DNA of 17,227 bases from a virus (IMGVR_UViG_2802429237_000005:1-17227); one strand, 5' to 3'. Positions 1 through 16,084 are shown, numbered from the stretch's first letter. The notes: generated from the sequence alone by a model not told the origin. A program made the numbers and translations.

Positions 1-342
1 CTACATACGACTCTGCTGCTTCTCCGTATGCACACGTTTGACTATCTTATAAATCCATTGCAGCGTCAGATTATATTTCTTCGCTAATTCGGCGTAGTTG
101 CGCCCATCGCACTCGCTATAGATTTGGTAGTCACGCTCCGATGCTCGTCCGGAGATCCCCTTAGGGAAATAAATGCTTTGCCCACCCCAGTTGCGCATCA
201 TTCGATCGGCAATGGCAAAACCCACATTTTCTGCCGATGAGCTGTCCAGATTAATGCTCTCAATCAGAACTTGCGATGCATGAAAAGCCAGGTCGTTAAT
301 GATCTCCGGTGTCCGGGCCATCTCTTTTGATTTTCGTATCAT
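1..342 (-). CDS. Mor/C-family transcriptional activator (Mu middle/late activator-like), 113 aa
   Basis: Complete minus-strand ORF with stop at 1-3 and start at 342. Size and C-terminal helix-turn-helix-like segment (GRNYAELAKKYNLTLQWIYKIVKR) fit the Mor/C activator family. GGAGA Shine-Dalgarno lies about 5 nt upstream of the ATG on the minus strand. Divergent from the lysis/tail operon. Confidence 0.7.
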   Translation of the reverse strand: MIRKSKEMARTPEIINDLAFHASQVLIESINLDSSSAENVGFAIADRMMRNWGGQSIYFPKGISGRASERDYQIYSECDGRNYAELAKKYNLTLQWIYKIVKRVHTEKQQSRM

Positions 343-581: not shown

Positions 582-879
582 TATTATTTTTACCTGTAGT
601 GTAAAAATAACGTTCTCCTCACAGTCGCTAAATTTCTTAAACAAACTTTAAAAATCAAATAACTATCGACTACCTCTACGATCCACCATCATCTTTCCCC
701 TGCATAATGACGCGCTTATTCTCCAGGTCAACTTTTACTCTTTTATTGATGGGGGGATTTATTAGCGGGCATGTTCATTTATAGAGAATCTATTTTTTAA
801 AGTTATTTATTAAAGCCTTTTTCATTCTTCACTGGAGGGTTCTGACGACACTAAACGCTCACTTATGAGGAGATATCGT

Positions 880-1167
880 ATGAAAAAAATCACATTTCCC
901 CGGCTTTCCGGTTGGCTGGCTGCAGCCATTGCTCTGATTGCATTGATCGGCTGGACCTCTTCAGCACAAATCCCGGTCGTCATTTATAAACTAAGCCTGG
1001 TTTCGCTTTCCGCAGTACTGGGATACTGGCTCGATCGCAGTTTGTTCCCCTGGGCACGACCTGACTCTTTTTCCCCCTGGAAGGAGCCGCGTTGCTGCGC
1101 GGCGGCAATGATTCGTCGGGCTATCATCGTTGCTGCCGTCTGCCTTTCCGTCGCGTTAGGGCTATAG
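880..1167 (+). CDS. holin-like small membrane protein with three predicted transmembrane segments
   Basis: ORF track 865-1167; the second in-frame ATG at 880 is preferred because GAGGA (867-871) lies 8 nt upstream. Three hydrophobic stretches (WLAAAIALIALIGW, LSLVSLSAVLGYWL, AIIVAAVCLSVALGL). Position immediately upstream of the endolysin. Function inferred from topology and context only. Confidence 0.55.
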   Translation: MKKITFPRLSGWLAAAIALIALIGWTSSAQIPVVIYKLSLVSLSAVLGYWLDRSLFPWARPDSFSPWKEPRCCAAAMIRRAIIVAAVCLSVALGL

Positions 1168-1169
1168 TG

Positions 1170-1775
1170 ATGTGGCTGAAATATATCGTGTCTATGATTA
1201 TTTTCGTTCTTTTCCCGCTTAACGCCTCTGAACCGCCGCGAGCCTCTCTGGCATGGCGAAACGAACTAATTCGTACCGCTCGAGAAGTCTGGGGACTGAA
1301 CGCCCCAGTGGCTGACTTTGCCGGGCAATTACATCAGGAGTCTGCCTGGCTGCCAATGGCACGTTCCCCTGTTGGCGCGCAGGGTATGGCGCAATTTATG
1401 CCTGCTACAGCGACATGGATAAGCCAGTTGTATCCACAACTGCGTGAAAACAAACCGTATAACCCAACCTGGGCAATTCGCGCGCTGGTGCAATATGACC
1501 AGCATTTGTGGAAAAACATCTCTGCGAAAAATGATTGTCAGCGTATGGCATTTACCCTAAGCGCCTATAACGGCGGTCAGGGATGGGTTAACCGGGATAA
1601 AAAACTGGCTGCATCCAAAGGGTTAGATGCCACTATCTGGTTTGGTCATGTCGAGCAAGTCAACGCCGGGCGCAGCCCCTCGAACTGGCGAGAAAATCGT
1701 CGCTACCCAAAGATGATTCTCTATCAACACGCCGCCCGCTATTTACTCTGGGGACAGGCAAGCTGTCTTCACTAA
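1170..1775 (+). CDS. endolysin, soluble lytic transglycosylase (SLT) domain with N-terminal signal/SAR sequence
   Basis: In-frame ATG at 1170 directly after the holin stop (TAG 1165-1167); the track start at 1092 would overlap the holin. N-terminus MWLKYIVSMIIFVLFPLNA is a hydrophobic signal or signal-anchor. Catalytic-region motifs typical of SLT domains: LHQESAW and AQGMAQFMPATA, plus AYNGG. Confidence 0.75.
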   Translation: MWLKYIVSMIIFVLFPLNASEPPRASLAWRNELIRTAREVWGLNAPVADFAGQLHQESAWLPMARSPVGAQGMAQFMPATATWISQLYPQLRENKPYNPTWAIRALVQYDQHLWKNISAKNDCQRMAFTLSAYNGGQGWVNRDKKLAASKGLDATIWFGHVEQVNAGRSPSNWRENRRYPKMILYQHAARYLLWGQASCLH

Positions 1776-1787
1776 TCAGAGGGGCCG

Positions 1788-2141
1788 ATGAAACTCAGTA
1801 TCGATTTTTGGGAAGTGATCTCCCTTATGCTTTCCTTCGTTGGATTAATATTTGCTGCCGGAAAATTGCTGTTAGCACAAATTGAAAAACGACTTAATGA
1901 ACGTTTTGAGTCTCTGGAAAATGCCCGCAGGGAATCAGAAACAAGTTGGTCGAAACTGGAAAGAGAATTTCTCGAATTTCGTGCCGAGCTTCCGCTGCAT
2001 TATGTCCGCAGAGAAGATTATCTTCGTGGGCAAGCTGTATTAGAAGCAAAGCTGGATGCCTTATATAGCAAAATCGAGCTGTTACAACGTGGCAGCTATA
2101 CTCTAAATAATTCGAGTTGCAGGAAGGCGGCAAGCGAATGA
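1788..2141 (+). CDS. membrane-anchored coiled-coil protein, possible i-spanin-like lysis accessory protein
   Basis: N-terminal transmembrane helix (VISLMLSFVGLIFAAGKLLL) followed by a charged heptad-like helical region. GAGGGG Shine-Dalgarno before the ATG. Sits in the lysis cassette. No embedded lipoprotein (o-spanin) ORF was found by manual frame reading. Confidence 0.45.
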   Translation: MKLSIDFWEVISLMLSFVGLIFAAGKLLLAQIEKRLNERFESLENARRESETSWSKLEREFLEFRAELPLHYVRREDYLRGQAVLEAKLDALYSKIELLQRGSYTLNNSSCRKAASE

Positions 2142-2231
2142 ATCTCCAGGAGCTTACATAAGTAAGTGACTGGGGTGAGCTAACGCAGACGCAGCACATG
2201 CAACTTGAAGTATGACGAGTATATTAAATAC

Positions 2232-2265
2232 ATCCCCACCTTTAGGTAAGCGTGGGGATTTTTAT
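2232..2265 (+). terminator. rho-independent terminator after the lysis cassette
   Basis: Inverted repeat ATCCCCAC (2232-2239) / GTGGGGAT (2252-2259) with a 12-nt loop, followed by TTTTTA (2260-2265). Confidence 0.6.
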
Positions 2266-2272
2266 AGTCATT

Positions 2273-2310
2273 CAATTTTTTCTCTAAATCACATTAAAAG
2301 ATTCTTCACC
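2273..2310 (+). promoter_or_regulatory. candidate activator-dependent promoter motif upstream of the tail-core genes
   Basis: CAAT-N7-CTAAATC-N4-TAAAAG block (2273-2300) repeated with identical spacing at 10832-10859, followed by ATTCTTCAC (2301-2309), which recurs at 824-832 upstream of the holin. Confidence 0.3.
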
Positions 2311-2372
2311 TTCACTGCTTCAGAATACATTTCAACGATAACGAAGTGAGCGGTAATTAAGGTACACCTCAT

Positions 2373-2828
2373 ATGAAAACTTTATCTGTAATGAATTATG
2401 TCGTGGTTAAATTACGTATTCGGCATCCTGAAATGGACATATTTATTTCATCTACGGACGCCCAAAAATATATTCCACAGACACAGCAAATTGCGGTGAT
2501 TATTAATTATAGCGGTTCTGTCTTTACCACGCCCGAAAGCAGTGATGCCATTGTGCAACAGCAAATACTCCGCTTAACCGCCACCGTTATTGTTGGCAAA
2601 AATTGTGACGCGTTAAACGCACTGGATCGCATACGCAGCACATTGGGTGGCCTTCAGCTTCCTGATTGCGATCGTCTTCTTTGGCTTGAAAAAGAAACTA
2701 ATACGGGTGAGAGCGGCGGTTTCTGCCGCTACATCCTGGAAATGGCGACCAGCTCGCTGTTTATCGCTGAACAGGAAAGCACGGATCTTCCCCTGCTTAC
2801 GGAAGTTAATTACGAGGAAACTGAATGA
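2373..2828 (+). CDS. hypothetical protein, 151 aa; placement suggests a tail completion/terminator-type protein
   Basis: Intact ORF, first gene after the terminator/promoter region, stop overlaps the next start (ATGA at 2825-2828). No motif I can assign with certainty; role inferred from its position before the sheath gene. Confidence 0.45.
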   Translation: MKTLSVMNYVVVKLRIRHPEMDIFISSTDAQKYIPQTQQIAVIINYSGSVFTTPESSDAIVQQQILRLTATVIVGKNCDALNALDRIRSTLGGLQLPDCDRLLWLEKETNTGESGGFCRYILEMATSSLFIAEQESTDLPLLTEVNYEETE

Positions 2829-3022
2829 AATACATCTACAACGGCCCGGCAAGCGGCGTCACCCTTGCCGACGGACAAGAAATCTTATTGTGGCCGAACA
2901 GTGAAATTGATCTGCCAGAAGACAACGAGTGGGTCATGACCATGATTGCCCGCAATCACCTGACTCCTGTCATCACTCAGGAAGAACAAAACAACGCAGA
3001 GGAAATTGTACATGGCAGCTAA
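2825..3022 (+). CDS. small conserved hypothetical protein, 65 aa, immediately upstream of the sheath gene
   Basis: Translationally coupled to flanking genes (ATGA overlap upstream, short overlap with the sheath start). Small acidic proteins in this position are common in Mu-like and P2-like tail clusters. Assignment by context. Confidence 0.45.
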   Translation: MKYIYNGPASGVTLADGQEILLWPNSEIDLPEDNEWVMTMIARNHLTPVITQEEQNNAEEIVHGS

Positions 3023-4436
3023 TTACCTGCACGGTGTAGAAACCATTGAAATTGAAACCGGCCCGCGTCCGGTTAAAGCGGTAAAATCCGCCGTCATCGC
3101 TTTAATCGGTACGGCCCCCTGTGGTCCGGTAAACAAACCAACATTATGCCTTTCTGAAAGCGATGCCGCGCAGTTTGGCGCAGGCATGGCTAACTTTACG
3201 ATCCCGCAAGCGCTGAAGGCAATTTATGACCACGGCGCCGGTACGGTGGTGGTGATTAACGTACTAGATCCGGCAAAACATGGCTCCAGCATCAGCAATG
3301 AGAGTATCACTTTTGATGCTAACAACCAGGCGAGACTCGCTCACCGCAATGTGCGTAACGTGGTACTAAAGCCCTCTTCATCAAATTCAACAACCTATAA
3401 CACCGCAGCATTTAGCGTAGATGAACAAACAGGCATAATTACCCGAAAAGGAGCCGACATTCCTCCTGGGGCAAAAGTTTGCGCCTATTATTCCTGGTGC
3501 GATCCTACAAAGGTTACCGCAGCCGATATTATCGGTGCCGTTAATACCGCAGGCGATCGCACGGGGATGAAACTGCTACAGGACACTTATAACCTGTATG
3601 GTTTCTACGCCAAAATCCTGCTTGCTCCCGTTTTCTGTACGCAAAAATCGGTGACTACTGAGCTAATTGCACAAGCGGAAAAACTCGGTGCTATCGCCTA
3701 CATTGACGCCCCAATCGGTACTACATTCCAGCAGGTGTTAGCTGGACGCGGTTCGCAAGGCGCAATCAACTTCAACACCAGCTCTGACCGTGCGCGTTTG
3801 TGCTATCCGCACGTCAAAGTTTATGACGGCGCAACCAACCAGGAAATTCTCGAACCGCTCTCTTCGCGCGCTGCCGGGCTGCGTGCCAAACTGGACGTGG
3901 AGAAAGGTTTCTGGTGGAGCAACTCAAACCAGGAAATTCAGGGTATTACCGGTATCGAACGTTCACTTTCCGCGATGATCGATGACCCGCAAAGTGAAGT
4001 GAATCAGCTCAACGAAAACGGCATTACCACTATTTTCAATAGTTACGGCTCTGGTCTGCGTTTATGGGGCAACCGCACTGCAGCATGGCCGACCGTGACC
4101 CATATGCGTAACTTTGAGAACGTTCGCCGCACGGGTGATGTGATTAACGAGTCGATCCGCTATTTCAGCCAACAGTATATTGATATGCCTATTAATCAGG
4201 CACTTATTGACGCGCTAACCGAATCGGTAAATACCTGGGGCCGAAAACTGATTGCCGACGGCGCACTGCTTGGCTTTGAGTGCTGGTACGATCCGGCGAG
4301 AAATTCACCGACTGAACTCAGCGCCGGGCATTTATTGCTGAGCTATAAATTCACCCCGCCGCCGCCGCTGGAACGTCTGACGTTTGAAACTGAAATTACT
4401 TCTGAATACTTAGTCTCTCTGGAGAGCAATAGCTAA
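3012..4436 (+). CDS. contractile tail sheath protein (P2 FI / Mu L-like)
   Basis: N-terminus MAANYLHGVETIEIETGPRPV and C-terminus CWYDPARNSPTELSAGHLLLSYKFTPPPPLERLTFETEI resemble recalled P2 FI sheath termini (xYHHGVQVLEI... and ...YIDYDYTPVPPLENLT...). ATG at 3012 preferred over the track's TTG at 3006; GAGGA lies upstream. Length of about 474 aa is typical. Confidence 0.9.
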   Translation: MAANYLHGVETIEIETGPRPVKAVKSAVIALIGTAPCGPVNKPTLCLSESDAAQFGAGMANFTIPQALKAIYDHGAGTVVVINVLDPAKHGSSISNESITFDANNQARLAHRNVRNVVLKPSSSNSTTYNTAAFSVDEQTGIITRKGADIPPGAKVCAYYSWCDPTKVTAADIIGAVNTAGDRTGMKLLQDTYNLYGFYAKILLAPVFCTQKSVTTELIAQAEKLGAIAYIDAPIGTTFQQVLAGRGSQGAINFNTSSDRARLCYPHVKVYDGATNQEILEPLSSRAAGLRAKLDVEKGFWWSNSNQEIQGITGIERSLSAMIDDPQSEVNQLNENGITTIFNSYGSGLRLWGNRTAAWPTVTHMRNFENVRRTGDVINESIRYFSQQYIDMPINQALIDALTESVNTWGRKLIADGALLGFECWYDPARNSPTELSAGHLLLSYKFTPPPPLERLTFETEITSEYLVSLESNS

Positions 4437-4960
4437 TGGCTGGAAAAATTCAAATTAATCGTATTACCAATGCCAATATTTATCTCGATGGTAATAACCT
4501 TTTAGGTCGTGCAACCGAAATTAAATTGCCGGATGTCAGTTTAATTATGCAAGAGCATAAGGCACTGGGCATGGTGGGTAAAATCGAACTCCCGGCTGGT
4601 TTCGATAAACTGGAGGGGGAAATTAAATGGAACTCCTTTTATCATGACGTCATGCGTAAAACGGCAAATCCGTGGCAGGCGGTAGCATTACAGTGCCGCT
4701 CCAGCATTGATTGCTATAACTCCCAGGGGAAAGCGAATCAATTAGCATTAGTGACACATTTAACCGTGATGTTTAAAAAGAATCCACTGGGCACATTTAA
4801 ACAGAATGAAAACCCGGAATTCAGCAGCGCCTTTGGCTGCACTTATATTAAACAAGTAGTCGATGGCGAAACACTGCTGGAACTGGATTACCTGGCGAAT
4901 ATTTTCCGCGTTAACGGCGTGGATCAATTAAGTACCTATCGCAATAACATCGGTGGTTAA
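4436..4960 (+). CDS. tail tube protein (P2 FII-like)
   Basis: ATG overlaps the sheath stop (TAATG). C-terminal motif VNGVDQLSTYRNNIGG matches the conserved end of P2-type tube proteins (recalled VNGVDRLEQHRRNIGL). Size 174 aa. Confidence 0.9.
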   Translation: MAGKIQINRITNANIYLDGNNLLGRATEIKLPDVSLIMQEHKALGMVGKIELPAGFDKLEGEIKWNSFYHDVMRKTANPWQAVALQCRSSIDCYNSQGKANQLALVTHLTVMFKKNPLGTFKQNENPEFSSAFGCTYIKQVVDGETLLELDYLANIFRVNGVDQLSTYRNNIGG

Positions 4961-4964
4961 GTTA

Positions 4965-4984
4965 TTCGGGGCTACCGCCCCGAA
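4965..4984 (+). other. GC-rich stem-loop after the tube gene (mRNA stabiliser or attenuator candidate)
   Basis: Perfect inverted repeat TTCGGGGC (4965-4972) / GCCCCGAA (4977-4984) with loop TACC. No downstream U-tract, so not a classical terminator. Confidence 0.4.
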
Positions 4985-5010
4985 CTTCGCAAAATAAATA
5001 AGGATACAAA

Positions 5011-5328
5011 ATGACAGAACACTATATCTTACAGTTTCCGTTTACTTCAGCGGCGGGAGACGTAATTAACACTCTGCAATTACGTCGCCTGAAAGTAAAA
5101 GATATGCGCAACGCACGCCGAATCAGCGAAAAGCCAGAAGAATGGGATGAACCGCTGATGGCGGCGATGACCGGACTGGTGCCGGAAGATTTAGCTGAAA
5201 TGGATTTGCTGGATTACCAGGCGTTGCAGAAACGATTTCAATCCATGCTTAGCGTGGCTACAGAATCCTCCCTTGCTATGGCAGGCAATGGCGCTACTGG
5301 CGAGATGGTTTCGCTTTCCGCCCAGTGA
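5011..5328 (+). CDS. tail assembly chaperone (P2 gpE-like position)
   Basis: 105-aa acidic ORF between tube and tape-measure genes, AAGGAT Shine-Dalgarno at 5000-5005. Followed by a 188-nt gap in which the +1 frame stays open to 5416, the expected arrangement for a frameshift-extended chaperone. Confidence 0.75.
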   Translation: MTEHYILQFPFTSAAGDVINTLQLRRLKVKDMRNARRISEKPEEWDEPLMAAMTGLVPEDLAEMDLLDYQALQKRFQSMLSVATESSLAMAGNGATGEMVSLSAQ

Positions 5329-5402
5329 GATCGACGCGCTCACAATAGATGACTTTAGCAACTGGCTGGATGAAGCCAGCGCTCAAATAAAGATCGAATA
5401 TG

Positions 5403-5433
5403 ACTCGCAGACCTGATGTCTGCGAGTTCTTTA
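5403..5433 (+). terminator. hairpin with T-rich tail between chaperone and tape-measure genes (attenuator/terminator candidate)
   Basis: ACTCGCAGAC (5403-5412) / GTCTGCGAGT (5418-5427) form a 10-bp perfect stem with loop CTGAT, followed by TCTTTA. The stop codon of the +1-frame extension (TGA 5414-5416) lies in the loop. Confidence 0.4.
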
Positions 5434-5516
5434 AAGCCCGCCAGGTTTATTTCTTCCCTGCCCATTTTTCAGAAAACTAACCAGCGGGCCATCACCAATC
5501 TATAAGAGAAACAATT

Positions 5517-7892
5517 TTGGCCAACGATATTATTACCCTGCTTCAGACGCGTAATGAGACGTTGACGCAGGCAATAGCCCGTTACGGCTCACTCAACGCC
5601 AGAACATTGTTAGCTCTCTCTTCTCAGCAAGCGACAGTAATCAAACTAACGCAGCAACTTGCCGATTCTGCTCTCCGCCTGGAGGAAAATAGCCGGAACC
5701 GCGCTGATCTGATGGAGAAAACCCAAACATTTGCCGGGCAATTTAACAAGGTATTCAATGTTGAAGCCCCTGACTGGAAGTTGCCGTATGAGTTTCAGGA
5801 CAACATGGTCAATATAGCGACCAAAGGTGGGATGAATGATACAACCAGCGTGACGCTCAGCCTTAACCTGCGCGACTGGAGCATGGATTTTAACCAGCAG
5901 CAGACCACATTACAGAACGCAGCCCAAACGCTGATCGAAGGCAATTTGTCGTCGTTGCAGGATCTCAACCGTTATATGCCGGAGATCGCCAAAGCTGCCA
6001 CCGCCACACGCGAAAGTGCTGAAACATGGGCGAATGCCGCGCTCACAACTCATGATCGCCTGAATATTGCGCCAGAAAATTTCCACGCCGCGCAAAACAT
6101 GATGTACGACATTAGCAAAAGCGGTGGGCCTGCCGTTGCCGAGCAAACGCAGTGGATAGACAAATTTGCAGGTAAAACGGGTGCGCAAGGTTTAGAAGGT
6201 ATGGCTGAACTGACCGCCACAATGCAGATCGCCATGAAAAACGGTGCCAGCGCCAGTGCGGCGGCGGAGAATTTCGACCACTTTCTGCAAACCACCTTTT
6301 CGAAAAAAACCGATAACTGGTTCGCCAGCCAGGGCGTCGATCTGCAAGGCTCTCTGCTTGAACATCAGCAAAACGGCATGGGTGTTAGCGAAGCCATGAC
6401 TCATATCGTGCAAATGCAGCTTGAGAAGATGAATCCGGCGATCCTCGGCACCTTCAAACGCACCATGCAGATTGAGGATTTATCTGCTCGCGGCAATGCA
6501 CTGCAATCGATGGTGACGCAATTTAATCTGGGTGAAATGTTCGGCGATGCACAAACTGTGGAATTCCTGGCTCCTATGTTGGCGAATATGGAAGAGTATC
6601 GCCAGTTAAAAACTTCCGCCATGCAAGCCAGCAGCAAGAATCTGATTGACTCCGACTTTTCTGCGCAGATGGCCTCGCCTATTGAACAGACTAAAGCGTT
6701 ACAGCTGGCGTTAAATGATTTATGGCTCAGCATTGGCTTGCAATTAATGCCGCTGATTGGCGAGCTGGCGCAAAGCCTTACGCCAGTGATTCGCCAGTTC
6801 AGCGCCTGGATACGTGAACACCCGGCGCTGGTGCAAAACATTGCGAAAATCGTCGGGGCGATTTGGCTGTTTAACGGCGCACTGAATGTTTTAAAGCTGG
6901 GCGCGAACTTCATCGCCTCGCCGTTTATTCGTCTGGTCGATATCTTCCTGAAAGTCAGGGCAAGTCTGGCGCTCACAGGCGCAGCGAGTAAGGTACTATC
7001 GGCGGTTAAGTCATTGGGTGGCGGCGCAAAATGGCTATCGCTACTGCTTGGTCGTGGCCTAATCGGAGCATTGAAACTGGTTGGTTTAACCGTTCTCTCG
7101 CTAGGCCGGGTGTTATTGATGAATCCCATTGGTCTGGTCATCACTGCGATTGCGGGCGCCGCTTATCTGATTTATCGCAACTGGGAGCCTATCTCAAGGT
7201 TCTTTTCGACCATCTGGCAACGTATCACCACGGCCTTTGACGGTGGCATTGCAGGAATTTGCCGGTTGATTCTCGACTGGTCGCCGCTGGAGTTGTTCTA
7301 TAGCGCCTTTTCCAGTGTGATGAATTGGTTTGGCGTTGAGATGCCAGCGAGTTTTAGCGAGTTCGGCAGCAATCTTCTGGGCAGTCTGGTTGACGGCATA
7401 ATGAATGCCTTCCCCGCTCTGAAAGGCATTATTGATCAGGTCAAAAACGTCTTACCGGACTGGCTAAAAACCACGATGGGTATTAGCACAGAAGGATCGG
7501 CTACGGCTGTTACAAGCACGACGAATACCGCATCCGTCTCCCCCGCAACCGTTGTTCCAGGCGTTGCCGGTGCAATTTTAACACCTCTGGTGGGCAAACA
7601 ACTCGCGCCCCCCAGCAAAACGACAACGCCGCCATCGGCACCAGCGGCAAAAAATACAGCCACCAACCCCGCATCGGCTTCTTTACCTGGTAAATCCGTA
7701 ACCAAACCGGCGACGCTACCTTCCCGTTCCTCAGGAAAAGTTCAGGTGAATTTTTCGCCACAAATTACCGTGCAGGGTAACGGACAAAACACCACTAAAG
7801 ACATTCAGAACGTGTTGACGATGAGTAAACGCGAACTGGAAAGAATGATTAACGACGTAATGGCGCAACAACAGCGCCGGGGGTATGCCTGA
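5517..7892 (+). CDS. tail tape measure protein
   Basis: 791-aa ORF directly after the chaperone, the longest gene in the cluster. Internal hydrophobic segment (LIGALKLVGLTVLSLGRVLLMNPIGLVITAIAGAAYLIY) and Thr/Pro/Ala/Ser-rich C-terminal region. TTG start at 5517 is the first start codon after an in-frame stop at 5478-5480; the start is uncertain. Confidence 0.85.
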   Translation: MANDIITLLQTRNETLTQAIARYGSLNARTLLALSSQQATVIKLTQQLADSALRLEENSRNRADLMEKTQTFAGQFNKVFNVEAPDWKLPYEFQDNMVNIATKGGMNDTTSVTLSLNLRDWSMDFNQQQTTLQNAAQTLIEGNLSSLQDLNRYMPEIAKAATATRESAETWANAALTTHDRLNIAPENFHAAQNMMYDISKSGGPAVAEQTQWIDKFAGKTGAQGLEGMAELTATMQIAMKNGASASAAAENFDHFLQTTFSKKTDNWFASQGVDLQGSLLEHQQNGMGVSEAMTHIVQMQLEKMNPAILGTFKRTMQIEDLSARGNALQSMVTQFNLGEMFGDAQTVEFLAPMLANMEEYRQLKTSAMQASSKNLIDSDFSAQMASPIEQTKALQLALNDLWLSIGLQLMPLIGELAQSLTPVIRQFSAWIREHPALVQNIAKIVGAIWLFNGALNVLKLGANFIASPFIRLVDIFLKVRASLALTGAASKVLSAVKSLGGGAKWLSLLLGRGLIGALKLVGLTVLSLGRVLLMNPIGLVITAIAGAAYLIYRNWEPISRFFSTIWQRITTAFDGGIAGICRLILDWSPLELFYSAFSSVMNWFGVEMPASFSEFGSNLLGSLVDGIMNAFPALKGIIDQVKNVLPDWLKTTMGISTEGSATAVTSTTNTASVSPATVVPGVAGAILTPLVGKQLAPPSKTTTPPSAPAAKNTATNPASASLPGKSVTKPATLPSRSSGKVQVNFSPQITVQGNGQNTTKDIQNVLTMSKRELERMINDVMAQQQRRGYA

Positions 7893-8845
7893 TGTATGCC
7901 GTTTTAGGAGAGATTGAATTTAAGGTTGTCACATTCTGGGACGGCTTTAAAAGCACAATGGGCGTGGATTACGCCACTCATGCCCGTATAGAGGGCAAAC
8001 CCGGCGTGCAGTTTATTGGCGATAAGCTGGATATGCTGGCGCTGGAATTTTCTCTGCACAGCCAGTTTTGCCAGCCCACAACAGAGCTGAATCGACTGCG
8101 TGAAGCCATGCTTGCGCACAAAGCGATGGCACTGGTATTTGGCAATGGCGATTATCGCGGCTGGTTTGTGATTACAGAGTTAACCGCCACCCACCAGCAC
8201 ACCGATCCCTGGGGCAATGTGATTGCCCAAAGCGGAACGATGTCGCTCCAGGAGTACACTGGCGCTCCTAAAAATCCACTCTTACCCCCGGCGATTACCG
8301 CCCAGGAGCCCAACATCGAGGAAAAGGCGAGCGATTTTCCAGACATGGTGGAGTCCTGGTTTGATCAGATATTAAACGCCATTGAAGAAGGTATGCGTAA
8401 GGCTAAAGAGATGCTGGATGAACTGACTCAAGCCATTGAAGATATTAAAAAAACAGTGGCAAAGGTCAAAGCACTAATTAAAGAGGCCAAAGCGTTAAAA
8501 GAAAAGTGTGAAAAGATAATTACGTCGTTGAAAAAAACAATCGACGCCATCGAAACCCTGTTTAAACAACCAATAGATCTGCAAACGCTGGCAGGACTCC
8601 CAAAAGCGTTGTCGGCGCAGATTAAAGCTTTACTGGGTAACATGCCAGGTATCCGGGACTGCGCCAATGACGCCAGTACGCTGGTTGACCATGCTCAGGC
8701 GCTTTTCGACGACATTACCAGCGACATCGCCGAAGCGACGTTTGATAAAGCCGCAGCGTTGGTTGATCAGGCACGAACAACGGTACAACAAACCACTCCA
8801 GCAGTGAGCCAGCTTGCTGCCGCGACCATTACGAGGAGCTGGTGA
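7892..8845 (+). CDS. P2 gpU-like tail protein with a ~190-aa C-terminal helical extension
   Basis: ATG overlaps the tape-measure stop (TGATG). The N-terminal ~125 aa (MYAVLGEIEFKVV...GWFVITELT) resemble recalled P2 gpU (MMVLGLFVF...GMFVI). The C-terminal half is Lys/Glu/Ala-rich with heptad-like periodicity (KAKEMLDELTQAIEDIKKTVAKVKALIKEAKALKEK). Confidence 0.7.
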   Translation: MYAVLGEIEFKVVTFWDGFKSTMGVDYATHARIEGKPGVQFIGDKLDMLALEFSLHSQFCQPTTELNRLREAMLAHKAMALVFGNGDYRGWFVITELTATHQHTDPWGNVIAQSGTMSLQEYTGAPKNPLLPPAITAQEPNIEEKASDFPDMVESWFDQILNAIEEGMRKAKEMLDELTQAIEDIKKTVAKVKALIKEAKALKEKCEKIITSLKKTIDAIETLFKQPIDLQTLAGLPKALSAQIKALLGNMPGIRDCANDASTLVDHAQALFDDITSDIAEATFDKAAALVDQARTTVQQTTPAVSQLAAATITRSW

Positions 8846-9054
8846 TGCGATACCTTGAACATATCACCACCGACGGCGAACGCTGGGATAATCTGGCATG
8901 GCATTACTACGGCGATGCGCTGGCTTATGAACGTATTATCGCCGCCAATCCACATGTCGCCATTTACCCGGTACTGCCTTCCGGTATTCAGCTCATTATT
9001 CCGGTCATTTCCGTCAACAAAACCTTATCGGAGATCCCACCATGGCTGAGATAA
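8845..9054 (+). CDS. tail protein X (P2 gpX-like)
   Basis: 69-aa protein with a ...WHYYGD...IIAANP... pattern resembling recalled P2 gpX (...RYYGR...VLAANP...). GAGGAG Shine-Dalgarno at 8833-8838. ATG at 8845 preferred over GTG at 8842. Confidence 0.8.
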   Translation: MRYLEHITTDGERWDNLAWHYYGDALAYERIIAANPHVAIYPVLPSGIQLIIPVISVNKTLSEIPPWLR

Positions 9055-10082
9055 GCGTATCTGGTGGCGTCTTTGCCACGCTTGCGCCCATTTTTACCCT
9101 CTGGTATGGGCATAAAGATATCACTTATGACATCACGCCCTATGTCACCAGCATCAGTTACCACGACAGCATCAAAAACGAGTCGGATACCATCGCGATT
9201 ACCCTGGATGATACCGATGGACGCTGGATAAAAGAGTGGTATCCCGGCAAAGGCGATACGCTGGCGCTGCATATGGGTTATCAGGGGGAGAAGCTTCTCG
9301 ATTGCGGTCAGTATATTATTGATAAAATTGATATTTCAGCGCCACCTTCCACGGTAAATATTGATGGCATCGCCACTTCCGTCAATCAGGCGCTGCGCAC
9401 CCGTAACAGCCAGGGTTTTGAAGAAACGACGCTTTCGGCTATTGCCAGCCGTATCGCGCAAACTCACGGTCTGAAGCTGGTGGGCAAAATCGAACCGCTG
9501 ACGATTGACCGGGTGACACAGTATGGCGAAACCGATGTCGGATTTCTCAAGCGTCTGGCCAGTGAATATGGCTATGCCGTAAAAGTGACGACAAAAGAGC
9601 TTATTTTTTCACATCTGCCGACGTTACGCTGCCTGGCGCCAGTGAAAAGCATCGACCGCAAAGAGGTTTCCCACTTCACCTTCAAAGACACCATTAATCG
9701 CATCTACAAGAACGCCACCGTACAACATCAAAACAGTAAGAAAAAAGAGTTGGTTATCTACACACATGACAGCCAGCAAAAACCGTCCGCCCGTGGAGCA
9801 GGCACCAGTGCCGACACGTTAAAACTCAATAGCCGGGCGCCGGACGTTGGCGCGGCACAGGCAAAGGCCAACGCTGCACTCAACAGCCACAACGAATATC
9901 AGCAAACCGGAACGCTAAAGATGATGGGCTGCCCGGAACTGACGGCAGGCAATAAAATCGAGCTAACCGATTTTGGTGTGCTTTCCGGTCAGTGGCTGAT
10001 TGATAAATCTACTCACAGTTTTGTGCGCAGCGGCTATACCACTGAAATCGACGTTTCGCGCGGGCCAGCGACCAGCCAGTAA
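9042..10082 (+). CDS. baseplate hub / late control gene D protein (P2 gpD-like)
   Basis: 346-aa ORF with patterns matching recalled gpD: GDTLALHMGY, TTLSAIASRIAQTHGLKL, GETDVGFLKRLASEYGYAV. Position directly after gpX. Confidence 0.85.
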   Translation: MAEISVSGGVFATLAPIFTLWYGHKDITYDITPYVTSISYHDSIKNESDTIAITLDDTDGRWIKEWYPGKGDTLALHMGYQGEKLLDCGQYIIDKIDISAPPSTVNIDGIATSVNQALRTRNSQGFEETTLSAIASRIAQTHGLKLVGKIEPLTIDRVTQYGETDVGFLKRLASEYGYAVKVTTKELIFSHLPTLRCLAPVKSIDRKEVSHFTFKDTINRIYKNATVQHQNSKKKELVIYTHDSQQKPSARGAGTSADTLKLNSRAPDVGAAQAKANAALNSHNEYQQTGTLKMMGCPELTAGNKIELTDFGVLSGQWLIDKSTHSFVRSGYTTEIDVSRGPATSQ

Positions 10083-10091
10083 GGAGGCAAT

Positions 10092-10793
10092 ATGAAAGGA
10101 GTAACCCGGCAAACGGGGATTATCAGCGATATTGACGAAACCAGCGTTCGGGTGCGGGTCACGCTGCCAGAGTGTGACAATCTGAAGAGCAACTGGCTTG
10201 CGGTACTTCAACGCAATTCCCAGGACAATAAAGACTACTGGCTACCGGATATGGGCGAGCAAGTGGAAGTTCTGCTGGACGATAACGGTGAAGATGGCGT
10301 GGTGCTGGGCGCAGTTTATTCTACGGTTGACACCGCGCCAGTGGCCTCGCGCGACAAACGTTACGTCCAGTTTTCTGATGGCGCAGCGTTTGAATATGAC
10401 CGCAGCACCCACCAACTTACGATTAACGGCGGTATCGAGAAAATCGTGATTGAGGTTATCGACAGTACCCGCCTGACATCGCCCAACATTGAGATTAAAG
10501 CCCAACAGGTCAGCGTGACTTCCGATACCGTCGATGTTAAAGCGACCGATGTCAACATCGACGCCACTGAGGTCAATGTTAAAGCGGCAGCAGTGACGGT
10601 AGATGCGCCCATAAGTACCTTTACTGGTAACGTCACGGTAATGAAAAAACTCACCTGGCTTGGCGGGATGGCAGGAAGTGGAGGCATCGGTAACGCCGCC
10701 ACGATAACCGGCAATGTCAACGTGATCGGCAACGTTCAGGCCAGCGGCACATTGCAGGACAGCGGAGGCAACTCAAACCACCATTCACACTAA
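10092..10793 (+). CDS. baseplate central spike (P2 gpV-like)
   Basis: AAGGAGG Shine-Dalgarno before the ATG. N-terminal OB-fold-like region, repetitive V/T/D-rich beta-helical segment (VTSDTVDVKATDVNIDATEVNVKAAAVTVDA) and C-terminal His cluster NSNHHSH, consistent with the metal-binding apex of P2-type spikes. Confidence 0.85.
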   Translation: MKGVTRQTGIISDIDETSVRVRVTLPECDNLKSNWLAVLQRNSQDNKDYWLPDMGEQVEVLLDDNGEDGVVLGAVYSTVDTAPVASRDKRYVQFSDGAAFEYDRSTHQLTINGGIEKIVIEVIDSTRLTSPNIEIKAQQVSVTSDTVDVKATDVNIDATEVNVKAAAVTVDAPISTFTGNVTVMKKLTWLGGMAGSGGIGNAATITGNVNVIGNVQASGTLQDSGGNSNHHSH

Positions 10794-10799
10794 CTTTTA

Positions 10800-10828
10800 A
10801 CCCGCCTGATGGCGGGTTTTCTCTTTTT
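10800..10828 (+). terminator. rho-independent terminator between spike and baseplate-wedge genes
   Basis: ACCCGCC (10800-10806) / GGCGGGT (10811-10817) with loop TGAT, followed by TTTCTCTTTTT. Confidence 0.65.
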
Positions 10829-10831
10829 AAT

Positions 10832-10859
10832 CAATCAGTTTTCTAAATCGCTTTAATAT
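10832..10859 (+). promoter_or_regulatory. candidate activator-dependent promoter motif upstream of gpW
   Basis: CAAT-N7-CTAAATC-N4-TAATAT with the same internal spacing as the block at 2273-2300. Lies between the terminator and the gpW start codon. Confidence 0.3.
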
Positions 10860-10891
10860 CGCCACTGCCCGTTCAGGGCGAAAATACCCTC

Positions 10892-11251
10892 ATGAACACA
10901 AAAACAAGACCCTCAACGCTGCACTGGCAACCAGCCTTGCAGCGGCCTGAAGAATACGTCTGCGGGCAGGATGATATTCACCAGGCAATACACATCATTC
11001 TGCGTACACCGCGCGGCAGTGATCCCCACAGACCGCTGTTTGGCAGCAACTTGTGGCACTACATCGATTACCCCATCGAGCGGGCAATCCCGCATGTGGT
11101 ACGGGAGTCGGTGGAAGCCATCCGCCAGTGGGAACCGCGATGCCGGTTGCTGAAGGTGACACCAGTAATCGACGGTGAACATCTGACGTTACGTGTGCAA
11201 TGGCGCGCCGCTGACGGTGTTATCAACTCAACGGAGGTGTTATGGCGATAG
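10892..11251 (+). CDS. baseplate wedge protein (P2 gpW / GPW_gp25 family)
   Basis: 119 aa. Pattern DDIHQAIHIILRTPRGSDPHRPLFGSNLW...AIRQWEPR matches the gpW/gp25 family (recalled P2 W: ...IGDILRTPVGSRVMRRDYGS...VLKWEPR). Confidence 0.85.
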   Translation: MNTKTRPSTLHWQPALQRPEEYVCGQDDIHQAIHIILRTPRGSDPHRPLFGSNLWHYIDYPIERAIPHVVRESVEAIRQWEPRCRLLKVTPVIDGEHLTLRVQWRAADGVINSTEVLWR

Positions 11252-12984: not shown

Positions 12985-14466
12985 ATGGATAATGAGTTTT
13001 ATACTCTGCTCACCAGCAGGGGGATGGCAAAAATTGCCAATGCCCTTGCAAATAAAAAACAGCTTCATCTACAAAAGATGGCCATTGGAGACGGCGGTGG
13101 GCAATATTATGAACCCACCGTCAGCCAAACTAAATTACGTCACGAAGTATGGCGTGGCGATTTAAATACATTAACCGTTGCGCCCAATAATCCTAACTGG
13201 TTAATTGCGGAACTTGTACTGCCCGAAAATATCGGTGGCTGGTATGTACGTGAAGTCGGTGTTTTTGATACTGACGGTGAACTCATTGCTATCGGTAAAT
13301 TCCCTGAGTCGTATAAACCGCTATTACCCGGCGGCAGCGGTAAGCAAGTTTGCATTCGTCTTATTATGGAAGTTTCCAATACGGCAGCGGTAACACTCAC
13401 CGTTGACCCCAGTATTGTGCTGGCAACGCGCGATTACGTCGATTCGCAACTGGATGAACATGAACGTTCAACTAATCATCCTGATGCTACGTTATCGCAA
13501 AAAGGCTTTACGCAGTTGAGTAACTCCACTGACAGCGATGACGAAACCAAAGCGGCTACGCCCAAAGCGGTGAAAGCAGCGATGATTGAAGCTCGAAATC
13601 ATCGTCATACCTGGAGTCAGATTACTGATATTCCGGATGGCACGCTGGCGCAAAAAGGGATCGTGAAGCTTAATAACGCGACCAATAGTACCAGCACGAC
13701 AGAGGCGGCGACACCGAGCGCGGTCAAGGCGGCGTATGACCTGGCGAATGGTAAGGCTGCGGGAAACCATACTCACCCATGGGGGCAGATTACGGGTGTT
13801 CCAGACGGCACCCTGTCGCAAAAAGGGATTGTGACGCTTAATAACGCGACGGATAGCACCAGTACGACTGAGGCGGCGACGCCTAGTGCGGTGAAGGCGG
13901 CGTATGACTTGGCGAATGGTAAGGCTGCGGGTAGTCATACGCACCCCTGGGGGCAGATTACCAATATTCCCGACGCAACTCTTGGTAAGAAAGGAATTGT
14001 TCAGCTAAGCAGTACCGTCCCTAATACCAGTACAACAGAAGCAGCAACGCCATACTCAGTTAAGGTTGCCTATGACCTTGCGAACACTAAAGCTCCGGCA
14101 AGCCATACTCATCCATGGAATCAAATTACTGGTATCCCGGACGGTACGCTGACGCAAAAAGGGATTGTGAAGCTTAATAACACAACAAACAGCACCAGTA
14201 CAACAGAGGCGGCGACACCCAGTGCGGTGAAGGCTGCGATGGACAAAGCAAATACAGCTTTGAATAACACCACTGCATCTATATCAGATGTCAGACTGGG
14301 TGCTAAATTTGATCAGGTTATGGCAAAAGGGGGGCGCTATGAATTTCCTGGTAATGTTCTGACTGGGTTGAGAATTATCGGAGAAGTGGATGGAGATGAT
14401 CTCGCTATATTTCGCCCACTTCAGATAAAGGTTAGAGGTTCTTGGTATACGGTAGGACAACTTTAA
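12985..14466 (+). CDS. tail fiber protein (P2 gpH-like N-terminal domain, tandem-repeat shaft, conserved C-terminal domain)
   Basis: ATG at 12985 with GGAG upstream (track start is GTG at 12979). N-terminal region (...MAIGDGGG...HEVWRGDLN...IAELVLPENIGGWYVREVGVFD...YKPLLPGGSGKQ...) matches the P2 H-type fiber N-terminus. Five tandem repeats of the ATPKAVKAAxDLAN type. C-terminus GLRIIGEVDGDD...FRP. Confidence 0.9.
   Translation: MDNEFYTLLTSRGMAKIANALANKKQLHLQKMAIGDGGGQYYEPTVSQTKLRHEVWRGDLNTLTVAPNNPNWLIAELVLPENIGGWYVREVGVFDTDGELIAIGKFPESYKPLLPGGSGKQVCIRLIMEVSNTAAVTLTVDPSIVLATRDYVDSQLDEHERSTNHPDATLSQKGFTQLSNSTDSDDETKAATPKAVKAAMIEARNHRHTWSQITDIPDGTLAQKGIVKLNNATNSTSTTEAATPSAVKAAYDLANGKAAGNHTHPWGQITGVPDGTLSQKGIVTLNNATDSTSTTEAATPSAVKAAYDLANGKAAGSHTHPWGQITNIPDATLGKKGIVQLSSTVPNTSTTEAATPYSVKVAYDLANTKAPASHTHPWNQITGIPDGTLTQKGIVKLNNTTNSTSTTEAATPSAVKAAMDKANTALNNTTASISDVRLGAKFDQVMAKGGRYEFPGNVLTGLRIIGEVDGDDLAIFRPLQIKVRGSWYTVGQL
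13477..14247 (+). repeat. five in-frame tandem repeats (153-168 nt; 51-56 aa) in the tail fiber shaft
   Basis: The unit TL(S/A/T)QKGIVxLNNxTxSTSTTEAATPSAVKAAYDLANGKAAGxHTHPWxQITxIPDG recurs five times; the nucleotide period measured between CAAAAAGGGAT copies is 153, 168, 168, 168 nt. Confidence 0.85.
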
Positions 14467-15119
14467 TGGAATATAAAAATTTCACACTCTATAAACCGGC
14501 AGAAAGTATTGGTGGTATTTTTTATCTAAAATCTGATGACGATGTTGATTGGTACGAGGCACAAAAAAAATTTTCTGCCGAAACGTTAAAAATTGCTTAT
14601 GACAGCACAGGTAGAATTTGCATTGCGGATACTGATGCATCAGCGATTTGGCCAATAAATTCATCTATCAGTGAGATCTCATCTGAGAATGTTCCTGATG
14701 ATTTTTCAACAAATGGGAAATGGTTCTGGAATGGCGAAACGATAATCAATGCTGTAACAATCGTAACTGCTAAAAAAAATAAAATGGAGGATATCAAAAA
14801 TCGACGAGATGAAATAACGGCAGACTACATCATCATCAACGACCATCACTTCCACAGTGATACCAGCAGCCGAATCCAACAGATCTCGCTCACTAAAATG
14901 GGTAAGGAGAAACAAATTCCGCCAGGTTTAATGTGGAAAACTAAAAATAACGGTCTGATTGAGTTAACCAACGAAATCGCCGCGCAGTTTGAATCCGTCA
15001 CCATGGATCACGATATGCGCTTATTCGCCAACGCCCAACGTCATATCGCGGCGGTGGAAGCTCTGGACGATATTCAGGCGGTGCTCGATTACGATTACTC
15101 CACAGGCTGGCAACCATGA
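14466..15119 (+). CDS. tail fiber assembly protein (P2 gpG-like chaperone)
   Basis: ATG at 14466 overlaps the fiber stop (TAATG); the track start at 14442 lies inside the fiber gene. Pattern DWYEAQKKFSAETLKIAYDSTGRICI resembles recalled P2 gpG ([26 protein letters not shown]). AT-rich N-terminal part is typical of exchangeable fiber/chaperone cassettes. Confidence 0.8.
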   Translation: MEYKNFTLYKPAESIGGIFYLKSDDDVDWYEAQKKFSAETLKIAYDSTGRICIADTDASAIWPINSSISEISSENVPDDFSTNGKWFWNGETIINAVTIVTAKKNKMEDIKNRRDEITADYIIINDHHFHSDTSSRIQQISLTKMGKEKQIPPGLMWKTKNNGLIELTNEIAAQFESVTMDHDMRLFANAQRHIAAVEALDDIQAVLDYDYSTGWQP

Positions 15120-15571
15120 GTAAAACCACTGTCTGGCTCGCTTGTTATAAGGGCCGAACAGAGCACCGCGGTATTGCCCGACTGGCTGACTGGCTTACCC
15201 GTAAGATCACACGCGGTAGTTATTCCCACTGTGAATTAGCCGTTAAGCATGGTGAAAAGAGTTACCTTTGTTACTCCGCATCCCTACGCGATCGCGGCGT
15301 ACGCGGAAAGATAATGCCATTACCGCCAGATAAGTGGGATATGCTGCCACTTAACTCCAGCCTTCAGGACGTTGAAGCTTTTTTCCATAAACATGATGGC
15401 AAAAAATATGACTGGCGCGGCGCGCTTGGAATTATCACCGGCAATAAAGAACAGCGCGATCGCCTGTTTTGCAGTGAATTTTGTGCTGAATTCCTGCAAT
15501 TAAAAGATAGTTGGCGATACTCACCAAATCACCTGTATGCCTTAGTAAGTAACTGGCAATCCCATCCGTAA
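15116..15571 (+). CDS. hypothetical 151-aa protein, last gene of the tail operon; tentative permuted papain-fold (NlpC/P60 / LRAT / YiiX-like) signature
   Basis: ATGA start/stop overlap with the assembly-protein gene implies translational coupling. N-terminal His motif (TEHRGIA) and C-terminal Cys motif (LFCSEFCAEF) about 100 residues apart, an order and spacing reminiscent of LRAT/YiiX-type enzymes. The fold assignment is a motif-level guess. Confidence 0.6.
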   Translation: MSKTTVWLACYKGRTEHRGIARLADWLTRKITRGSYSHCELAVKHGEKSYLCYSASLRDRGVRGKIMPLPPDKWDMLPLNSSLQDVEAFFHKHDGKKYDWRGALGIITGNKEQRDRLFCSEFCAEFLQLKDSWRYSPNHLYALVSNWQSHP

Positions 15572-15576
15572 ATAAC

Positions 15577-15601
15577 ACCGGGCACAGTGCCCGGTTCCTT
15601 A
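15577..15601 (+). terminator. stem-loop/terminator at the end of the tail operon
   Basis: Perfect palindrome ACCGGGCAC-A-GTGCCCGGT (15577-15595) followed by TCCTTATAT. Downstream sequence turns AT-rich and lacks long ORFs. Confidence 0.5.
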
Positions 15602-16084
15602 TATACTCTAAATAGCTTATATAGACACATCCCCGATGCAAGCACGGTCAGACAGAGAAAATGGCCTCAGTGCCTTACCCCAAAAGGGCTGACCGAAAGT
15701 GGAACACTATTCCGCGAGGCTATTTAGAATCAGGCTATAAGGCATTCATAAAAAATATCATTCCACACAAAACATTTGCATAGAGAATAAAAAGCGATTT
15801 TTAAACATAAATATATTGCGTTATAAATCACTTCAAATATAGTTTGTCCTTTTGGCGCCCTCATAGACGATGCGAGGAAACAGCATGTTTACTGCCTCAC
15901 TCCTCTGGAAAAGTAAGGTTATCACTAATAAAAATGAGTCAGATAACACGTTACTGTCTGCACGCCACAAAGATAGAGGCTTAAGTAGGGCAACATTCAT
16001 ACATACACTATGCACATACGCTGATTCCTCATTTGCTTATAAAAACTCAATAAAGCAAGGTAACAATAAAAAGGATAATTCATC

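Follow-up and report, generated by a model that had tools for sequence, protein, structure and literature searches.

We conclude that the three transcription units of a headless, Mu-type phage tail cluster probably each start at a sigma-70 promoter that depends on an activator of the Mor/C type. The cluster lies in a 17,227-nucleotide (nt) stretch of viral DNA (IMGVR_UViG_2802429237_000005:1-17227; here called the window, always at its full length) and comprises mor, a gene for a Mor/C-family activator, together with a lysis cassette and tail genes. We refer to the promoters as A (before the holin gene and the rest of the lysis unit), B (before the unit that runs from gp37, the tail terminator gene, to the spike gene V), and C (before the unit that runs from a gp25-like baseplate wedge gene to the fiber genes). 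An original prediction, made from the window alone, had pointed to two similar blocks, CAATTTTTTCTCTAAATCACATTAAAAG (2273-2300) and CAATCAGTTTTCTAAATCGCTTTAATAT (10832-10859), to a 9-mer, ATTCTTCAC (824-832 and 2301-2309), and to a partial copy, CTAAATAGCTTATATAG (15608-15624). All of these strings are present, and such blocks do mark the start of each of the three units. Judged by their sequence, the blocks at B and C are most likely binding sites of the cluster's own Mor-family activator. What we describe is an ordinary arrangement in the style of phage Mu and a member of the known Mor/C promoter class.

The evidence that carries this conclusion is comparative. About 85 related loci were compared overall, gathered by a scan of genome contigs with the gpD-like protein (4 loci) and a scan of viral contigs with the sheath protein (80 added). 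The viral-contig loci comprise more copies of the window-type cluster, a second tail-only lineage (sheath identity, 76%), and complete Mu-like phages, in which head genes lie between the lysis genes and gp37. An alignment of the DNA that precedes the holin, gp37, and gp25-like genes, made for all loci, gave 98 distinct sequences (A, 17; B, 41; C, 40). One architecture recurs at the start of each of the three units: a 16-bp site, T[C/T]TAA-N6-TTAA[A/T], followed by 22 variable nt and a hexamer, nAnnnT. Pairwise identity is 0.79 to 0.85 in the site versus 0.46 to 0.54 in the spacer, and the hexamer retains A at its second position (A2) in 96 of the 98 sequences and T at its sixth (T6) in 95. Site and hexamer are separated by precisely 22 nt in all three promoters, also in lineages whose sheath is 70 to 97% identical to that of the window. 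Dyad symmetry in the site reaches 4/5 in most B sequences and 5/5 in some orthologues (for example TTTAAAGCAGATTAAA in L002), and several C sites contain TAAAGCGCTTTA. A Burkholderiaceae genome (L005) carries the complete 16-bp palindrome TTTAATGCACATTAAA, then 22 nt, the hexamer CACGAT, 6 nt, and an ATG.

The match is also strong when measured from outside the window lineage. A site-plus-hexamer matrix trained on the orthologous promoters of other genera, with the window lineage left out, scores 25.8 bits at B and 29.1 bits at C. The maximum in 200 shuffled windows is 23.7 bits, and elsewhere in the window the score does not exceed 14.3 bits. The core TCTAAA-N5-TTAAW occurs twice in the window, at 2283 and 10842 only, versus 0.03 expected occurrences. 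Within the window alone, the two 28-mer blocks are identical at 20 of 28 positions, and comparison of the two intergenic regions gave a best 28-mer identity of 21, a value reached in 2 of 500 shuffles; at that level the similarity is probably real, short of proof. In the complete related phages, the matrix gives two to four coding-strand matches each, which precede the lysis genes, a head gene, the tail chaperone gene, and the gp25-like gene. Nearly all of these phages have no motif before gp37, which there directly follows head coding sequence. That gp37 lacks the motif when head genes precede it means that the motif tracks the starts of units, not particular genes.

At promoter B, the site TCTAAATCACATTAAA (TCTAA-ATCACA-TTAAA; 2283-2298, plus strand) scores 22.1 bits, the top site score in the window, with a dyad score of 4/5. 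It covers the CTAAATC element of the original prediction and most of the hexamer there proposed as a -10 element. Among the 41 distinct orthologous sequences, T3, A4, and A5 as well as T12, T13, and A14 are invariant (41/41). The -10-like hexamer, CAGAAT (2321-2326, plus strand), follows 22 nt after the site, and its orthologues read CATAAT, GATAAT, CAAAAT, or GATACT at the same spacing (A2, 41/41; T6, 40/41). Read from this sequence, transcription is predicted to start at about 2333-2334, with the gp37 ATG at 2373. An intrinsic terminator that ends the lysis unit precedes the site (2232-2265, plus strand; hairpin at 2232-2259 and then ATTTTT; minimum free energy, -15.5 kcal/mol; z = -4.1) and is kept in most, not all, orthologous clusters. 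Downstream of the hexamer, positions 2327-2372 and the orthologous leaders share a conserved GAAC-N-ATAACGAAG. In most genera a short leader hairpin stands before the gp37 ribosome-binding site (RBS); the window lineage is 14 to 15 nt shorter here.

Promoter C has the same layout. Its site, TCTAAATCGCTTTAAT (TCTAA-ATCGCT-TTAAT; 10842-10857, plus strand), scores 21.9 bits with a dyad score of 3/5 and is kept before the gp25-like gene in each of the three lineages, also in the complete Mu-like phages and the Burkholderiaceae genome. The -10-like hexamer GAAAAT (10880-10885, plus strand) lies 22 nt after the site, within an element spanning 10875-10894, and is conserved to the same degree at both key positions (A2 and T6, 38/40 each). 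An intrinsic terminator after the spike gene V, found by a terminator scan, stands upstream (10799-10829, plus strand; hairpin at 10799-10818 and then TTTTCTCTTTTT; minimum free energy, -15.3 kcal/mol; z = -5.0). In the window, 6 nt separate the hexamer from the start codon of the gp25-like gene (ATG at 10892); the distance is 6 to 8 nt in every lineage, and we see no Shine-Dalgarno (SD) sequence in CAGGGCGAAAATACCCTC, which precedes this ATG. Transcription initiated 7 nt beyond the hexamer would begin with the A of the ATG (about 10892), so that a leaderless transcript is predicted; the mRNA for the baseplate and fiber proteins may thus be leaderless.

The original prediction placed its blocks just downstream of intrinsic terminators. 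This is correct for B and C in the window and does not hold generally, as several B orthologues and all C sequences of the more distant lineages have no terminator. Its CAAT element finds no support as a promoter element: at B it is not conserved outside the window lineage, and at C it belongs to TAATCAA, a block confined to the closest clusters.

Promoter A appears to be built differently at its activator site. The activator region (796-824, plus strand) contains direct TTAAAG half-sites at 797-802 and 810-815, 13 bp apart. The 16-bp frame in register with B and C is ATTAAAGCCTTTTTCA (809-824, plus strand), of which the right half is degenerate and only the left half-site is present. The stretch TTTTTTAAAGTTATTTATTAAAG is nearly invariant across genera. 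The -10-like hexamer GACACT (847-852, plus strand) again follows 22 nt after the frame, and all 17 distinct orthologous sequences fit G/C/A-A-T/C-A-C-T at that spacing (A2 and T6, 17/17 each). A start is predicted from the sequence at about 859-860; an SD-like GAGGAG is found at 867-872, and the holin ATG at 880 is equivalent to the holin start in the Escherichia coli annotation. Less probably, A could be a TTTAA-N9-TTAAA dyad with its center shifted upstream by one helical turn, a reading at odds with the N6 spacing of the other two promoters. A 2025 preprint places the activator site just upstream of a non-optimal -35 element and describes tetramer binding over nearly three helical turns (10.1101/2025.05.02.651988); the tetramer model may be relevant to recognition of A.

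None of the three promoters has a functional -35 hexamer. The bases 17 bp upstream of the hexamers are ATTCTT (A), AAGATT (B), and TATCGC (C), which match TTGACA at no more than two of six positions, and a sigma-70 scan of the window called no promoter at A, B, or C. A T-rich tract precedes sites B and C. An alternative core, AATAC, located 23 nt after ATTAAAAG, was dropped in favor of the hexamer 3 nt upstream (CAGAAT, GAAAAT, or GACACT). We prefer the latter frame because it keeps A2 and T6 and applies to all lineages, including one (L026) that has lost AATAC.

The candidate activator is encoded at the left end of the window by mor (1-342, minus strand; 113 amino acids), divergently from the lysis genes. 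The protein matches the Mor family (Pfam PF08765; E = 2.2e-37) and is 27% identical to Mor of Mu and 34% identical to Mu C over the DNA-binding half. A Mor-family gene is found beside all 30 of the 30 window-type clusters whose sequence extends that far (the window counted). Its recognition-helix stretch, TLQWIYKIVKR, is conserved in a 40%-identical phage homologue (L051; SLQWIYSVVKR) with the same half-sites in its promoters. The stretch is unlike those of Mu Mor (TFNTVYKAIRR) and Mu C (SQPQIYQIIAR), two proteins that use other half-sites. We found no second regulator: the E. coli annotation lists only Mor, and the window proteins that were scanned show no other DNA-binding family.

A LexA (SOS) box, TGCTGTATGTGTATACAGTA, occupies 564-583 in the divergent region between mor and the holin gene, with one mismatch to TACTGTAT-N4-ATACAGTA. 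It has the CTGT-N8-ACAG palindrome, near the consensus TACTGTATATATATACAGTA, and overlaps two candidate promoters, either of which it may control: a plus-strand (rightward) match, TTTACA-16-TACAGT, and a possible minus-strand (leftward) TAAAAT toward mor, both of which overlap one conserved decamer. Chance would give 0.03 such boxes, and 10 of the 12 genus-level representatives retain it. The simplest reading that the box suggests is SOS control of mor. Between it and promoter A, positions 610-660 form a conserved block with GATCGTT and the dyad TTAAACAAACTTTAA (637-651). A leftward Mor-type promoter at TTAAACAAACTTTAA, through which mor would regulate itself, was rejected (about 1.5 bits, with no good hexamer).

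By analogy with Mu, we infer the following mechanism. The Mor-family protein (1-342) would bind the dyad, centered at about -42.5 to -43.5, where a -35 element would be, and the bound protein would use sigma region 4 and the alpha C-terminal domain to recruit RNA polymerase, replacing the missing -35 element. Transcription would then start at about 859 for the holin unit, about 2333 for the genes from gp37 to V, and about 10892 for the genes from the gp25-like gene to the fiber genes. Since a conserved LexA box adjoins mor, the order of events may be DNA damage, then Mor, and then the lysis and tail genes.

Several observations weigh against this interpretation, and the main one, which limits our confidence, is an inverted repeat that encloses the C hexamer (AGGG at 10875-10878 and CCCT at 10887-10890). 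The repeat is present in most lineages and covaries (AGGG/CCCT, GAGGC/GCCTC, GGGAC/GTCCC, and GGGGC/GCCCC). Stems average 4.73 bp in true pairs versus 3.55 bp in cross-pairs; none of 2000 permutations attained the mean observed. A covarying repeat around a proposed -10 element may be easier to understand as an RNA hairpin, in a transcript that started upstream or that reads through from V. In addition, the hexamers match TATAAT at only three or four of six positions, and the sequences compared are related, so that the counts overstate independent support. At A, the dyad score is 2/5 and the site matrix gives only 2.5 bits, which is why we treat A as a variant promoter. Finally, at C the hexamer named in the original prediction, TAATAT, is itself a good -10 match and occurs in 35 of the 40 distinct sequences.

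That hexamer speaks for the anatomy originally proposed, which we nevertheless consider unlikely. On this reading, TAAAAG (2295-2300) and TAATAT (10854-10859) would be the -10 elements, CTAAATC would be a spacer sequence that serves as an activator or extended element, transcription would start about 7 nt after the hexamer, and our downstream hexamer and the GC-rich repeat would belong to leader RNA. TAATAT matches TATAAT at five of six positions, and a covarying repeat between it and the ATG is sensible as a leader hairpin. The A2 and T6 expected of a -10 element, however, are found in this frame only at C. The B hexamer reads TAAAAG in 39 of 41 sequences; the remaining two have TAGAAG or TAGGAG, and T is never its last base. 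The equivalent bases at A are TTCATT or TTCGTT. The hexamers of the original prediction consist of site positions 13 to 16 plus two bases, and the dyad symmetry of the block fits a site for a dimer rather than a -10 element; in the two B exceptions, the change to TTAG even improves the complementarity between the right half and the left half, CTAA. Each of the three promoters also carries a second hexamer, with near-invariant A2 and T6, at a constant distance of 22 nt, in a frame that Mu promoters share. We therefore retain the original idea of sites for a Mor/C-family activator at promoters with poor -35 elements, which agrees with the mor gene, the missing -35 elements, and the Mu-like geometry, and replace the anatomy: TAAwA(T) is the promoter-proximal half-site of the dyad, and the likely -10 element sits 22 nt downstream of the site.

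It is less probable still that the geometry is as we describe and the dyad is bound by some other factor (a host AT-binding protein, namely IHF, Fis, or H-NS, or another protein of the element), with Mor acting elsewhere. The site is AT-rich, and promoter A is the most conserved of the three and yet has no dyad. Against this, neither the E. coli annotation nor the scanned window proteins supply another regulator, and the Mu promoter Pm has the 5-6-5 dyad and the 22-nt spacing and shares the TTAAT half-site. Region A also misfits the sigma-28 pattern: by eye, the TAAAGTT in this region is not followed by a -10 element like GCCGATAA.

We find it very improbable that the blocks act as RNA, within read-through transcripts, as signals for processing, antitermination, or translation, and not as promoters. 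In the distant lineages, the C motif comes directly after the V stop codon with no terminator, and it would there be part of a longer RNA; the inverted repeat near the ATG, as noted, covaries. However, the AT-rich dyad cannot form a stable RNA hairpin, the center of the B site is not palindromic, and an Rfam scan of the window returned no match. The motif is also always co-oriented with the units and upstream of their starts, with the -10-like hexamer at fixed spacing. Last, chance similarity in AT-rich intergenic DNA, a doubt that the original prediction raised itself and that the moderate strength of the window-only comparison would allow, is refuted for B and C by the ranking of both blocks above all 200 shuffles and by their retention at orthologous positions across genera while the flanks diverge.

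A tentative possibility is that promoter C is a dual DNA and RNA element: in DNA, the -10 element would set the start on the AUG of a leaderless transcript, and in RNA that reads through from V, the repeat would fold beside the SD-less AUG and block translation. The arrangement of hexamer, repeat, and ATG is conserved from Enterobacterales tailocins to complete Mu-like phages. If this idea were true, synthesis of the baseplate wedge and the fibers would depend on Mor-driven initiation and not on read-through.

Two further strings of the original prediction can be judged in the same frame. The 9-mer ATTCTTCAC is a real repeat, and its standing as a promoter element is lost, as it is out of register by 3 nt between A and B: from its start to the conserved hexamer it is 23 nt at A and 20 nt at B. 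Elsewhere, only TTCTTC (A) or TTCAC (B, in variable register) is conserved near its position, which amounts to a loose TTC...AC. By our own arithmetic, one repeated 9-mer in 17 kb is expected by chance, and its exact identity looks lineage specific. In Mu, bases just downstream of the activator site matter (PMC2582627), and the downstream TTC...AC bases may be loosely related to these. The partial copy CTAAATAGCTTATATAG finds no support as a promoter: the stretch 15607-15624 (plus strand) scores 4.8 bits, with no hexamer at 21 to 23 nt. Resemblance to the E. coli cluster stops at 15583, and this stretch is thus beyond the conserved cluster, upstream of an unrelated AT-rich glycosyltransferase region; it is likely a chance similarity.

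With regard to gene content, the plus-strand lysis unit consists of the holin gene (880-1167), an SLT-type transglycosylase gene (1170-1775), and a gene for a small membrane protein (1788-2141). The tail unit, also on the plus strand, begins with the gene for the tail terminator Gp37 (2373-2828), followed by a small open reading frame (ORF), sheath, tube, chaperone, and tape measure genes, N-, X-, and D-like genes, and the spike gene V (ending at 10793). The gp25/W-like wedge gene (10892-11251, plus strand) opens the third unit, which continues on the same strand with J, I, the fiber gene, a fiber assembly protein gene, and an ORF that ends at 15571. With tail, baseplate, fiber, and lysis genes, no head, packaging, or replication genes, and a chromosomal locus, the cluster has the gene content and location of an R-type tailocin.

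The segment 1-15583 is 93% identical to a cluster in 40 of 5,426 complete E. coli genomes, where it is located between lysC and the yjbD region. The Salmonella copy corresponds to STM4198-STM4219 and is also bounded by lysC, and syntenic copies occur in Phytobacter, Superficieibacter, and Dryocola. Searches of the literature for the Salmonella locus tags, and for tailocins with Mor and LexA, found no study of the promoters of this cluster, and a paper on an E. coli ST131 "tailocin" addresses neither promoters nor a Mor activator. The right flank of the window (15584-17227) is AT-rich and encodes a GT4-family glycosyltransferase from 16085. It has no match in any complete E. coli genome, which places the window in a related organism whose insertion context differs.

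Other loci vary in the number of motif copies and in what has been inserted near them. The second tail-only lineage and the complete phages have an extra copy of the motif between the tube and tail chaperone genes (L031, 5516; L051, 12004; L035, 12003; L071, 12261; L045, 11941). The corresponding gap in the window (4960-5011) contains only a GC-rich hairpin and no motif. At 2097-2228, the window carries a stretch that matches other records of the phage collection as an isolated repeat of about 130 bp. We take it to be a repeat like the enterobacterial repetitive intergenic consensus (ERIC), or intergenic repeat unit (IRU), and it is probably the reason why several matches to the window are found in every E. 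coli genome. It is inserted at the stop codon of the ORF at 1788-2141, which has 13 codons more than its E. coli counterpart. Similar repeats are inserted between V and the gp25-like gene (L004), upstream of gp37 (L002), and in the mor-holin region (L015), always upstream of the promoter motif. In Salmonella Infantis (L086), a gtrABC operon for O-antigen glucosylation (13227-16062; STM4204-STM4206 in LT2) lies between the spike gene V and the gp25-like gene, and the promoter C motif is kept directly upstream of the latter (site at 16176). All of these insertions, ERIC-type repeats and the Salmonella gtrABC alike, are upstream of the motif, and the segment from motif to gene is intact. One locus (L025; IMGVR_UViG_3300050189_000004) has a T7 promoter, a lac operator, and a pET-type RBS (TAATACGACTCACTATAGGGGAATTGTGAGCGGATAACAATTCC...AAGGAGATATACCATGG) fused to a Salmonella-type gp37 homologue at 124, and appears to be a cloned expression construct within a metagenome-derived "viral contig."

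These results provide a concrete regulatory map for a tail-only cluster of Salmonella, some E. coli, and several other enterobacterial genera, with one activator, three promoters, and a probable SOS input. They extend the Mor/C rule (a 5-6-5 dyad, 22 to 23 bp, and a -10 element) beyond Mu to a distant branch with its own half-site, T[C/T]TAA / TTAA[A/T], and may be of use for annotating late promoters in related prophages and tailocins. They also illustrate that a correct call of an activator site can carry a wrong -10 assignment, which in this case only the comparative data revealed.

A close known relative of these promoters is Pm of Mu, which has a 16-bp element of two 5-bp inverted repeats with a 6-bp spacer, no -35 element, and a weak -10 element, and in which the alpha C-terminal domain is bound by A/T-rich DNA immediately before the Mor site (PMC4390567). 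The C protein of Mu binds a 16-bp imperfect dyad centered at -43.5, at promoters with a -10 element and no -35 element (PMC2582627). We read the annotated promoters of Mu in the same frame as those of the window. In our reading, Pm is AGTAAAGCCGGTTAAT (AGTAA-AGCCGG-TTAAT) followed by 22 nt and TATCCT, and it ranks 11th of 73,342 positions with the matrix. Pmom is ATTATGCCCCAATAAC (ATTAT-GCCCCA-ATAAC) followed by 23 nt and TAAGAT. The dyad center of both is at -43.5 if transcription starts 7 to 8 nt after the hexamer. The C-dependent promoters of Mu rank from 123 to 1,548, a poor score that is expected because their half-site differs. With Pm read in this way, the window promoters share its geometry and its TTAAT half-site. 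They also resemble it in the 5-6-5 dyad and the lack of a -35 element, and Pm likewise directly follows a terminator hairpin. They differ in that the activator is only 27% identical to Mor and that the window spacers (ATCACA and ATCGCT) are not G/C-rich.

The C-dependent late promoters of Mu, which drive lysis, head, and tail genes, would have the same role as those of the window; their 16-bp imperfect dyad, centered at -43.5, overlaps the -35 region, and they have a recognizable -10 element (PMC2582627). By our reading, however, the Mu late promoters have the half-sites ATTAT/ATAAC and a spacing of 23 nt, versus 22 nt here. Mu has an internal tail promoter, PP, inside gene N and upstream of P, whereas the internal promoter here precedes the gp25/gp46-like gene. 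A further difference from Mu is that one activator would serve three late-type units, with no separate C, in a headless tail cluster and not in a transposable phage. The late promoters of P2 and P4, which depend on Ogr and Delta, are likewise activator dependent, without a -35 element, and located before the lysis and tail operons of a contractile-tail phage; their activator is an unrelated zinc-finger protein, and its site, TGT-N12-ACA, is centered near -55. We noticed no such site in the window, although no search was aimed at it. The R-pyocins of Pseudomonas aeruginosa, controlled by PrtR and PrtN, are likewise tailocins with a lysis cassette that are induced by DNA damage through a dedicated activator. 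There, PrtN is unrelated to Mor, and the link to SOS is RecA-dependent cleavage of PrtR rather than a LexA box.

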